Assembly: GCF_030013595.1 (NCBI RefSeq)
Contig: NZ_CP122768.1
Origin: Escherichia coli
GTDB lineage: Bacteria; Pseudomonadota; Gammaproteobacteria; Enterobacterales; Enterobacteriaceae
Length of the DNA: 64,000 nt
Direction: 5' to 3' (one strand)
Position numbers and translations under genes: made by a program. A model generated the notes under the pieces. The model was not told the DNA's origin and did no database searches. It saw only the letters and a list, made by a program, of their open reading frames with translations. How positions within the stretch are numbered: position 1 is the first letter of the stretch; each line of letters starts with the position of its first letter. Of this stretch, positions 9,119 to 12,432 are shown piece by piece.

Positions 9119-9592
9119 ATGAACCGGTTTATTATTGCGGATGCGACGAAATGTATCGGTTGCCGTACCTGTGAAGTGGCTTGCGCAGTGTCGCATCAGG
9201 AGAATCAGGATTGCGCTGCGTTGTCACCAGACGAGTTTATTTCCCGTATTCGTGTCATTAAAGACCACACATGGACCACGGCTGTAGCCTGCCATCAGTG
9301 TGAAGATGCACCGTGCGCGAATGTCTGCCCTGTTGACGCGATAAGCCGCGAACATGGGCATATTTTCGTTGAACAATCACGTTGCATTGGCTGTAAAAGC
9401 TGTATGCTGGCTTGCCCGTTTGGTGCGATGGAGGTCGTTTCTTCGCGCAAAAAGGCGAGGGCGATTAAGTGCGATCTGTGCTGGCATCGGGCGACGGGAC
9501 CGGCCTGTGTTGAAGCCTGCCCGACAAAGGCGTTGCAGTGCATGGATGTCGAGAAAGTGCAGCGGCATCGGCTACGGCAGCAGCCTGTTTGA
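9119..9592 (+). CDS. ysaA: 4Fe-4S ferredoxin-type protein
   Basis: ORF 9113..9592 trimmed to MNRFIIADATKCIGCRTCEVAC...; several CxxCxxC clusters. Confidence 0.85.
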   Translation: MNRFIIADATKCIGCRTCEVACAVSHQENQDCAALSPDEFISRIRVIKDHTWTTAVACHQCEDAPCANVCPVDAISREHGHIFVEQSRCIGCKSCMLACPFGAMEVVSSRKKARAIKCDLCWHRATGPACVEACPTKALQCMDVEKVQRHRLRQQPV

Positions 9593-9708
9593 AACGTTTT
9601 TCCGGCGTTTCTCAACGCAGGGATAGTGCGCTTTGTTTATGCCGGATGCGGCTAAAATGAACTGCACCCCAAATGTTGGACATAATCTGACATCTGAAGG
9701 TGCAGTTT

Positions 9709-10230
9709 ATGAAACATTCATTTGAAGTAAAACTTGCCGCTGTAAATCATTACCTGGCTGGTCATGCAGGCATCATTTCTACGGCAAAACTCTTTCAACT
9801 TTCTCACACCAGCCTCTCACACTGGATTAATCTTTTTCTTCTTCACGGTCCTCGTGCACTGGATTGCAGACACAAGCGTAGCTATTCTCCTGAAGATAAA
9901 CTTTGCGTGGTTCTTTATGCTCTCGGGCATTCTGAGTCTCTACCCCGGGTAGCTGCCCGGTTTAACATTCCCAGCCACAACACGGTTAAAAACTGGATAA
10001 AAGGCTACCGCAAATCTGGTAATGAGGCCTTTATCAGGCGCAGGAAGGAGAAAAGCATGACCCGTTCTGATGATACCCATGAAAACGAGGCAAACATGAC
10101 GCCGGAAGAGATGAAGAATGAGCTGCGTTATCTTCGCGCAGAAAATGCATATCTGAAAGCCATGCAGGAGCATCTCCTGGAAAAAAAGCGCCAGGAGCTG
10201 GAGAAAAAACGAAAGTCATCCGGAGCCTGA
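9709..10230 (+). CDS. insJ: IS150 OrfA (HTH DNA-binding protein)
   Basis: 173-aa ORF MKHSFEVKLAAVNHYLAGHAGIISTAKLF... ending in a leucine-zipper-like region. Confidence 0.85.
   Translation: MKHSFEVKLAAVNHYLAGHAGIISTAKLFQLSHTSLSHWINLFLLHGPRALDCRHKRSYSPEDKLCVVLYALGHSESLPRVAARFNIPSHNTVKNWIKGYRKSGNEAFIRRRKEKSMTRSDDTHENEANMTPEEMKNELRYLRAENAYLKAMQEHLLEKKRQELEKKRKSSGA
10183..10189 (+). promoter_or_regulatory. Programmed -1 ribosomal frameshift heptamer A AAA AAG
   Basis: Slippery A AAA AAG motif in the orfA frame (LEKKRQ) just before the orfA stop; the -1 frame continues into orfB. Position +/- 2 nt. Confidence 0.6.
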
Positions 10231-10334
10231 GGTGCGGACACTGCCAGTCTGACCTGTTAAAGGCTGCAGGGCTGGCCAGAAGCACGCTGTACTACCAGCT
10301 GTCACTGCAGAAGGCTAAGGACAAGTATGCTGAT

Positions 10335-11089
<755 letters not shown>

Positions 11090-11172
11090 AAACGCCTTAT
11101 CCGGCCTACAAATTCTACCAAATTCAATATATTGCAGAAATCATGTAGGCCTGATAAGCGTAGCGCATCAGG
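11090..11172. repeat. REP elements (BIME-like); the first REP is split by the IS insertion
   Basis: GCCGGATGCGGC (9640-9652) on the left flank and CGCCTTATCCGGCCTAC (11093-11109) on the right rejoin into a consensus-length REP; a second REP GTAGGCCTGATAAGCGTAGCGCATCAGGC lies at about 11143-11171. Confidence 0.6.
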
Positions 11173-11178
11173 CAATTT

Positions 11179-12432
11179 TTAGTGACTTTCAGCCCAGGCT
11201 CTTTCTATCTCTTCTGCCAGAATCTTCACTCCCGCCTCAATTTTCTCCGGCTCCGGCACGTAGTTCATGCGCATACATTGATGTGTATGTGGCCACGGTT
11301 TATCCAGCCCTGGGAAGAAGTTGTGCCCCGGCACCATCAGCACGCCCCGTGCTTTCAGGCGCTGGTAGAGCTGCTCGGTCGTAATTGGCAAATCCTTAAA
11401 CCATAGCCAGAGGAAAATGGCTCCTTCCGGTTTATGAATCAGGCAGCGATCTTCCGGTAAATAGCGGCGAATGATGGCGATAGTTTCCTGAACACGCTGG
11501 TAGTAAAACGGTTTGATGACTGTTTCAGACAGGCGCAGCAGATCGTTACGCTTAATCATTTCACTCATCATCGCCGGACCAATACCGCCAGGTGCCAGGC
11601 TGATAATGCCGTTCATATTGGTGATGGCGGTGATGATTTTTTCATTGGCGATGATAATGCCGCAGCGGGAGCCTGGTAGACCCAGCTTGGAAAGACTCAT
11701 GCACAGCACGATATTCGGATTCCATAGCGGGCGCGCTTCGCTGAAGATGATACCCGGGAACGGGACGCCATAAGCGTTATCAATCACCAGCGGAATGCCG
11801 TGTTGATTCGCCAGCGCGTCAAGCTTCAGCAACTCTTCGTCAGTAATCACATTGCCTGTTGGATTCGTCGGCCGGGAGACGCAAATCATCCCGGTTTCTT
11901 CGCCAATATGCAGATGCTCAAAATCGACGTGGTATTTAAACTGGCCTTCCGGCAGCAGTTCAATATTCGGACGCGCAGAGACAAACAGATCTTCTTCCAG
12001 TCCGGCGTCAGCGTAGCCAATGTATTCCGGTGCCAGCGGGAACAGCACTTTTTTGACCCGACCATCGGCACGGCGTCCGGCAAACAGATTAAATAAGTAG
12101 AAAAACGCGCTCTGGCTGCCGTTTGTTAGTGCAATATTCTGTGGTTCGATATCCCAACCCAACTTCTCGCGCAGCATTCCGGCAAGCAGTGTGAGTAGCT
12201 CCGTTTTCCCCTGTGGACCGTCGTAATTGCACAGTGCATCAGTCGCTTTGCCACTTTCCAGCATGTCGGTCAGTAGCGTCTGGAAGTAGTCCTGCATTTC
12301 CGGGATCTGCGCTGGATTACCGCCGCCGAGCATAATCGCGCCAGGCGTGCGTAAACCGTCGTTCAGATCTTCCATCAGCAGCGTAATGCCGGAGTGGCGG
12401 GTAAATTTGTCACCAAAAAGGGAGAATGTCAT
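11179..12432 (-). CDS. avtA: Valine-pyruvate aminotransferase (transaminase C)
   Basis: ORF 11179..12537 trimmed to MTFSLFGDKFTRHSGITLLMEDL... (417 aa). Confidence 0.9.
   Translation of the reverse strand: MTFSLFGDKFTRHSGITLLMEDLNDGLRTPGAIMLGGGNPAQIPEMQDYFQTLLTDMLESGKATDALCNYDGPQGKTELLTLLAGMLREKLGWDIEPQNIALTNGSQSAFFYLFNLFAGRRADGRVKKVLFPLAPEYIGYADAGLEEDLFVSARPNIELLPEGQFKYHVDFEHLHIGEETGMICVSRPTNPTGNVITDEELLKLDALANQHGIPLVIDNAYGVPFPGIIFSEARPLWNPNIVLCMSLSKLGLPGSRCGIIIANEKIITAITNMNGIISLAPGGIGPAMMSEMIKRNDLLRLSETVIKPFYYQRVQETIAIIRRYLPEDRCLIHKPEGAIFLWLWFKDLPITTEQLYQRLKARGVLMVPGHNFFPGLDKPWPHTHQCMRMNYVPEPEKIEAGVKILAEEIERAWAESH

Follow-up and report, generated by a model that had tools for sequence, protein, structure and literature searches.

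Predicted frameshift cassette of an Escherichia coli IS1397 copy, with a slip site displaced from the IS150-group position

Between ysaA and avtA, a 64-kb stretch of Escherichia coli DNA (contig NZ_CP122768.1; the window hereafter, meaning the whole of the stretch that was analysed) carries an insertion sequence whose transposase is divided between two overlapping reading frames. The locus raises the question of how a complete enzyme would be made from such a pair, and whether this copy can still make one. The reading favoured here is that the region is very probably the recoding cassette of an intact IS1397, in which a -1 slip on the heptamer A_AAA_AAG would lead to the OrfAB transposase. The signal itself is ordinary, being already annotated in RefSeq and published in a catalogue of E. 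coli frameshift sites, and for that reason the analysis adds little beyond the annotation of the window.

Identity, insertion site and state of the element

The element occupies positions 9658-11089 on the + strand, measures 1,432 bp and is the single IS1397 copy in the 64-kb window. IS1397 belongs to the IS150 group of the IS3 family, and the identity of the element was set by RefSeq-annotated copies together with NCBI protein names. At the same ysaA-avtA site, a RefSeq copy annotated as IS1397 is 100% identical over the full 1,432 bp; it bears the label 'IS3-like element IS1397 family transposase', with a two-part CDS and the remark 'programmed frameshift'. Because it matches IS1397-annotated copies at 100%, the element is, by its sequence, IS1397 and not IS150. 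The hallmarks of the IS3 family are all present at 9658-11089, namely imperfect inverted repeats (IRs) of the form 5'-TG...CA-3', a length within the range of ~1.2-1.55 kb, two overlapping ORFs of which the second lies in the -1 frame (the overlap being 109 nt), and a target duplication of 3 bp, where 3-4 bp is expected. The IRs read TGAACTG.../...CAGTTCA, with no differences among the five copies compared. A megablast search of 5,426 complete E. coli genomes found full-length IS1397 in 1,707 of them and up to 40 matching places per genome; 1,327 records are at least 99% identical. The coordinates of all features are given in Table 1.

Table 1. Coordinates of the features of the IS1397 copy and of its insertion site (positions in the window)
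Feature	Position	Strand	Details
Left half of split REP/palindromic unit	9641-9657		GCCGGATGCGGCTAAAA; pairs with 11093-11105 in the empty site
Left target-site duplication	9655-9657		AAA, 3 bp; from the empty-site comparison with strain A10
Left inverted repeat (IRL)	9658-9682	+	starts 5'-TG; 25-nt arm, 84% complementary to 11065-11089
orfA	9709-10230	+	173 aa, helix-turn-helix DNA-binding protein; 0 frame (mod3=1); ATG at 9709, stop TGA at 10228-10230
orfB frame	10122-11057	+	-1 frame (mod3=0); opens after TGA at 10119-10121, ends at TAA 11055-11057
Homologue of Y-L-K-K site	10147-10161	+	GCA TAT CTG AAA GCC (A-Y-L-K-A), not slippery; from ungapped alignment and motif scan
SD-like AGGAG, putative upstream stimulator	10166-10170	+	GGAG (10167-10170) starts 15 nt before the heptamer
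Slippery A_AAA_AAG	10182-10188	+	orfA codons GAA AAA AAG (10180-10188); X_XXZ_ZZN register
Predicted 38-nt hairpin, putative downstream stimulator	10192-10229	+	3-nt spacer; includes the orfA stop UGA
Second A-run	10204-10209	+	GAG AAA AAA CGA; A6, in the hairpin loop; no in-register X_XXZ_ZZN
First canonical start in the orfB frame	10335-10337	+	GTG; 213 nt into the open frame; residue 210 of the fusion
Right inverted repeat (IRR)	11065-11089	+	ends CA-3'; 25-nt arm pairing with 9658-9682
Right target-site duplication	11090-11092		AAA, 3 bp; from the empty-site comparison with strain A10
Right half of split REP/palindromic unit	11093-11105		CGCCTTATCCGGC; pairs with 9641-9657 in the empty site

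Strain A10 has no insertion at this site, which there reads GCCGGATGCGGCTAAAACGCCTTATCCGGC; joining the two flanks in the window gives a sequence 3 bp longer. The uninterrupted site, GCCGGATGCGG-CTAAAA-CGCCTTATCCGGC, folds into a REP hairpin, and from the difference of 3 bp IS1397 is placed in the loop of that hairpin with a 3-bp duplication of AAA. Transposition of IS1397 into REPs has been proven experimentally (PMC1525189), and the window copy behaves like the element as reported there, i.e. by insertion into a REP loop. A search for joined flanks and for junctions in the 5,426 E. coli genomes found the ysaA-avtA site empty in ~4,492 and occupied in 22, the latter being mostly swine isolates. 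As judged from sequence comparison, the insertion at ysaA-avtA is recent, and the intergenic BIME between these genes is a polymorphic insertion site.

Whether this copy is alive was also at issue, the sequence-only reading having called the element transposition-competent rather than decayed. That opinion fits the intact IRs, the 3-bp duplication, the full-length ORFs and the rarity and polymorphism of the insertion. Decay does occur in this element, as in the E. coli UM146 copy, a pseudogene with a 1-bp deletion in orfA at the equivalent of window position 9855, and the window copy might by analogy be an immobile relic whose products are limited to OrfA and perhaps a shortened OrfB started at the GTG at 10335. 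Comparison with four other IS1397 copies, however, revealed no disabling change, the heptamer and IRs being invariant, and the copy is 100% identical to other full-length copies. Furthermore, its duplication is clean, its site is occupied in so few genomes and empty in so many, IS1397 is found at as many as 40 places in a genome, and the element's transposition into REPs is an experimental fact (PMC1525189). The relic reading is accordingly accorded next to no probability, and the window copy looks competent and is probably mobile. For annotation, 9658-11089 can be treated as one intact, probably mobile IS1397.

Several other features were observed in and around IS1397 insertions. In UM146 (locus L002) the IS1397 copy lies downstream of rrf, with a frameshifted IS110-family transposase gene ~240 bp further. 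In E. coli K-12 MG1655, a 65-bp fossil of the IS1397 right end sits between yhhI and yhhJ (window 11025-11089 corresponding to positions 401-465 of locus L085, 95% identical), and among E. coli genomes that lack a full-length copy, about 1,800 besides K-12 have the same fossil. The fossil adjoins a REP half, TAAACGCCTTATCCGGCC, directly after the ISEc1 transposase gene yhhI, and appears to be the remnant of an old insertion of IS1397 into a REP, truncated afterwards. In the window, directly to the right of the insertion sequence and before avtA, two REPs (arms 11096-11110 and 11144-11158) are separated by a spacer that holds a match to the Rfam sRNA family ES036 (CssrF) at 11110-11152 (+), with a score of 38.9 bits vs a gathering score of 37.6.

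Reading frames, heptamer and fused transposase

The product of orfA has the Pfam domain HTH_28 (E=9e-18), and the exact protein falls in a cluster of 2,287 members. The orfB frame encodes HTH_21, rve (2-102 of 102, E=3.8e-21) and rve_2, and its translation contains the sequence contexts of the catalytic triad, WVTDITEF, LHSDQGWHY and DNAVMENFFGHLKEE. Within orfA the heptamer stands in register, its six A's belonging to a run of seven (10181-10187), and its last base lies 42 nt ahead of the end of the stop codon of orfA, in agreement with the earlier remark that orfA ends shortly after A AAA AAG. From the heptamer onwards the -1 frame is free of stops up to 11055. The same reading had described orfB as open for about 200 nt, without an ATG, ahead of its first start codon; the open frame and the lack of ATG are borne out, with the amendments that the frame opens at 10122, not 10131, and that the first start is a GTG. 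The first ATG of the frame is at 10455, and there is no usable start for an independent full-length OrfB. An independent start of the kind seen in IS911, where AUU follows an SD-like sequence, was considered and rejected, there being no start-like codon suitably spaced after GGAG in the -1 frame.

When the two frames are joined at the heptamer, as join(9709..10188, 10188..11057), the product is an OrfAB of 449 aa with the junction LLEKK|APGAGEK, and letter for letter it is the NCBI protein 'IS3-like element IS1397 family transposase' on 71 contigs. Against NCBIfam NF033516 the fusion scores 387 bits (cut-off 160) in one stretch, residues 62-442 covering 1-369 of the 369 profile positions, and it unites the Pfam set HTH_28, HTH_21, rve and rve_2. 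The expectation that an in-silico -1 fusion would give one continuous IS3 transposase is thereby borne out, and neither of the two defects that had been named as fatal to it is found, i.e. no stop interrupts the -1 frame between heptamer and orfB, and all five copies compared have the same heptamer. Both the heptamer and the fusion are solid observations. As a bare string, AAAAAAG is not rare, with 24 occurrences on both strands of the 64-kb window vs 15.8 expected, and it is its position that is the non-chance part; the significance of the heptamer comes from its in-frame place in the 109-nt orfA/orfB overlap and from the same arrangement in relatives, not from rarity.

The sequence-only reading had seen in this layout the classic architecture for producing OrfAB by programmed -1 frameshifting, and the description is upheld, in that an IS3-type orfA/orfB pair is joined at A_AAA_AAG; that frameshifting takes place, and how efficiently, is what we infer from it. 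Most ribosomes translating orfA would halt at the UGA at 10228-10230 and release the 173-aa DNA-binding OrfA. A minority would slip back by one base while decoding AAA-AAG (10183-10188) within A_AAA_AAG and would read on in the -1 frame, starting with GCG (10188-10190) and ending at 11057, with as their product the 449-aa OrfAB transposase, in which the helix-turn-helix domain is combined with HTH_21 and the DDE core. The internal SD-like GGAG, 15 nt before the heptamer, probably aids the slippage, and a modest hairpin, 3 nt after it, may also do so. For annotation, orfA and orfB would then represent one programmed-frameshift transposase gene plus OrfA, not a broken gene.

Much of this is in keeping with the published survey of Sharma et al. 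2014, in which the IS1397 orfA constitutes cluster A_AAA_AAG_5, one of those for which -1 PRF 'can be safely inferred', and is not listed as demonstrated (PMC4066793). In that work A_AAA_AAG ranks among the most efficient motifs in E. coli, and IS150 is called a proven frameshift case, citing Vogele et al. 1991 (PMC4066793).

The same protein could in principle be reached at the level of transcription, if RNA polymerase were to add an extra A on the A7 run at 10181-10187 and so give rise to single-frame OrfAB mRNAs with no ribosomal slip. Many IS clusters may use such transcriptional realignment, and AAAAAAA is avoided in genes partly on that account (PMC4066793); the run of seven A's in IS1397 is one longer than the heptamer needs. 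To a polymerase, however, neither the exact X_XXZ_ZZN register nor the spaced GGAG would be of consequence, nor would the terminal G, which provides the optimal codon for the A site, and most relatives keep A6G rather than longer runs. For the RNA polymerase of E. coli to slip efficiently, a run must be some nine bases long or longer, and the A7 run falls below that length. Transcriptional slippage is on these grounds considered very improbable, and ribosomal slippage at the heptamer is retained as the preferred mechanism.

It might also be that ribosomes slip wholly or partly not at the heptamer but at the second A-run (10204-10209), by single-tRNA slippage on A_AAA. The resulting fusion, ...LEKKRQELEKK-TKVIRSL..., would have the same length as that from the first site, and the two are distinguished by their predicted junction peptides, LLEKKAPGAGEK for the first site and LEKKTKVIR for the second A-run. 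No stop interrupts the -1 frame across either run, A_AA.A figures among the usable tetramers, albeit as a weak one (PMC4066793), and one NCBI entry is annotated with exactly that join. On the other side, the first-site join appears on 71 contigs vs this 1, and the second run contains no in-register heptamer and, being part of the loop of the predicted hairpin, would be without a downstream structure. Moreover, the run reads AAAAAG in the 97% variant L003, whose transposase nevertheless carries a programmed-frameshift annotation. As the main route, or a substantial part of it, slippage at the second A-run is extremely improbable; low-level slippage there, in addition to that at A_AAA_AAG, is possible.

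Putative stimulators around the heptamer

In the scheme of Sharma et al. 2014, an SD-like sequence counts as a stimulator candidate when it lies 6-17 nt before the motif (PMC4066793), and the spacing of GGAG at 10167-10170 falls within that range. A stimulatory role for GGAG is plausible, with its conservation confounded by Gln-Glu coding. The same four bases also form part of a perfect hairpin, CAGGAG-CAU-CUCCUG at 10165-10179, which ends 2 nt before the heptamer. As this hairpin would be inside the ribosome during slippage, it probably has no role there, and it could mask GGAG in untranslated mRNA.

Downstream, the minimum free energy (MFE) fold predicts a 38-nt hairpin made up of a basal stem CAGG/CCUG, a 2x2 internal loop and an upper stem CUGGA/UCCGG of five pairs, the last of these stems being extended by the predicted pairs G10203-C10217 and A10204-U10216 across a bulged A10218. 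With an MFE of -12.4 kcal/mol it ranks within the top 3.7% of windows of 38 nt along the insertion sequence; the fold of the entire 141-nt region is no more stable than those of shuffled sequences (z = -1.24). A second common allele of the cassette replaces a U.G pair in the upper stem by U-A, and in the 97% E. coli variant one A-U pair of the basal stem is lost, perhaps accompanied by a shift of register. The hairpin is without covariation support, the E. coli copies being too alike for covariation, and Sharma et al. 2014 give an aln_div of 0.02 for the IS1397 cluster (PMC4066793). The prediction of a downstream stem-loop had been proposed as a check, and a 38-nt hairpin does turn up, albeit one that is modest, shows no covariation and loses a pair in one variant. 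As a stimulator, the predicted hairpin is an unproven and weakly supported candidate.

Both candidates coincide with published ones. Table S8 of the survey records, for the IS1397 cluster, an SD in 100% and a hairpin in 100%, of 38 nt, with a spacer of 3 and a first stem of 4 bp (PMC4066793). The GGAG and the 38-nt hairpin were recovered here independently, with the same hairpin size, spacer and first stem as in that table, and IS911 and IS1397 are the IS clusters listed with both stimulators (PMC4066793). A search of all families of Rfam release 15, with E up to 10, over positions 9550-11250 gave no match to a frameshift-element family, and a scan for promoters and terminators gave nothing informative.

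The slip site relative to IS150 and other relatives

The sequence-only reading had proposed a comparison with IS150, and it is in this comparison that the IS1397 cassette departs from expectation. The architecture is indeed shared, for IS150 (insJ/insK) belongs to the same group and likewise combines orfA and orfB in the 0 and -1 frames, A_AAA_AAG, a downstream hairpin, which in IS1397 is a predicted one, and a DDE OrfAB. However, the two fused transposases are 41.7% identical, and the codons of IS1397 at the IS150 position, TAT CTG AAA GCC, are not slippery. IS150 slips at M-Y-L-K-K (TAT CTA AAA AAG), which is followed after a 6-nt spacer by a 48-nt hairpin with a 10-bp stem, GCCTTAGCTC/GAGCTAAGGC, and it has no SD; this layout agrees with Table S8 (PMC4066793). 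In IS1397, by contrast, GGAG lies upstream, the predicted hairpin is shorter, interrupted and only 38 nt in size, and the heptamer is found at L-E-K-K, 9 codons (27 nt) downstream of the family slip position. A 9-codon deletion in the hairpin loop of IS1397 was entertained as the source of the difference and dropped, the alignment being ungapped, which means that it is the position of the heptamer that differs, and not the loop.

The family slip position is defined by a scan of 100,044 representative genomes, which yielded 80 related loci of 38-57% amino acid identity from Bacillota, Pseudomonadota and others. Of these loci, 66 have in their orfA/orfB overlap an in-frame heptamer, scored as A_AAA_AAG in 57 instances and as A_AAA_AAA in 9, and at every locus having both the E-N-x-Y-L-K motif and a heptamer, the heptamer spans Y-L-K-K. 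The Y-L-K-K slip site is conserved in IS150 and about 60 relatives, and GGAG at a spacing of 15 nt is present in most relatives of the IS150 group. A consensus of 26 sequences places a 10-bp stem, GCCUUAGUUC...GAACUAAGGC, 6 nt after the heptamer, within a hairpin of ~66 nt. Across these 26 relatives the stem is 97.7% paired, with compensatory changes in 5 of its 10 pairs, and its covariation score was reached by 0 of 500 shuffles, slid controls being far lower. The family-type 10-bp stem is absent from IS1397, in which the spacer between heptamer and hairpin is 3 nt, vs 6 nt both in the 26-sequence consensus and in IS150.

Some relatives in the survey take other forms. Four loci from Pseudomonas asuensis, P. 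oryzihabitans and P. rhizoryzae (L005, L009, L045 and L048) have one continuous ORF of ~1.4 kb, reading ENAYLKQARSL..., with no orfA stop, and by their sequences are natural in-frame OrfAB transposases that would need no frameshift. Two further loci, from Pseudomonas endophytica and P. saliphila (L066 and L077), have two ORFs, read Y-L-K-E where Y-L-K-K is usual, and contain no X_XXZ_ZZN heptamer in the overlap. A protein of 189 aa (P0174), 76% identical to residues 130-306 of the fusion, was taken up as a natural in-frame fusion (LLEKSARSWRKTKVIQ...) and set aside, for it has further frame errors downstream; being one A short in each A-run, it is probably a homopolymer sequencing artefact.

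The closest relative found is an IS3-family element on a plasmid of Pantoea sp. SO10 (NZ_CP040096.1, 41159-42522), with 53% amino acid identity. Like IS1397, it has a displaced slip site (Y-L-K-V-M...L-E-K-K), an A7G run and GGAG 15 nt before the heptamer; its downstream hairpin, AGCGG/CCGCU with a 9-nt loop, differs from that of IS1397. Positions 10157-10215 of the window and 755-813 of the Pantoea locus (L088) are near-identical at the nucleotide level over the stretch that extends from -25 to +27 relative to the heptamer, a similarity that points to strong constraint by dual coding, recoding signals or both. Intermediates between the two elements did not appear in the searches made: when homologous proteins were sought with the IS1397 fusion, the matches were all near-identical copies from E. 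coli; with the Pantoea relative as query, the same IS1397 copies came up at 53%, and nothing in between; and a search of the representative library with the fusion gave, fragments apart, relatives of at most 53% identity. A single contig scan of representative genomes did not bring up ISKpn1, a sister element known from the literature.

More distant systems offer parallels to the arrangement in IS1397. In both dnaX and IS911, an SD-like sequence lies ~10-12 nt upstream of A_AAA_AAG and a stem-loop lies just downstream, a layout like that predicted for IS1397. The dnaX gene is nevertheless unrelated to IS1397, and frameshifting there shortens the product relative to that of the 0 frame instead of lengthening it, whereas IS911 belongs to another subgroup of the IS3 family and the stimulators of IS1397 are putative.

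Taken with the family survey, the displaced heptamer makes it likely that the whole recoding cassette was rebuilt in the IS1397 lineage, 27 nt downstream of the position typical of the IS150 group. By this account, the ancestral Y-L-K-K heptamer and its covarying 10-bp stem would have been lost, and a new A_AAA_AAG would have arisen in an A-rich Glu/Lys stretch, with GGAG at an unchanged spacing. A new, shorter hairpin would re-use roughly the region of the old 3' arm. Such a move of the cassette may already be covered in specialist reviews of the IS3 family. The displaced slip site is of small interest for the evolution of recoding signals; if the reconstruction is true, IS1397 would provide a natural example of a frameshift signal that has migrated within a dual-coding overlap while its modular geometry was kept.
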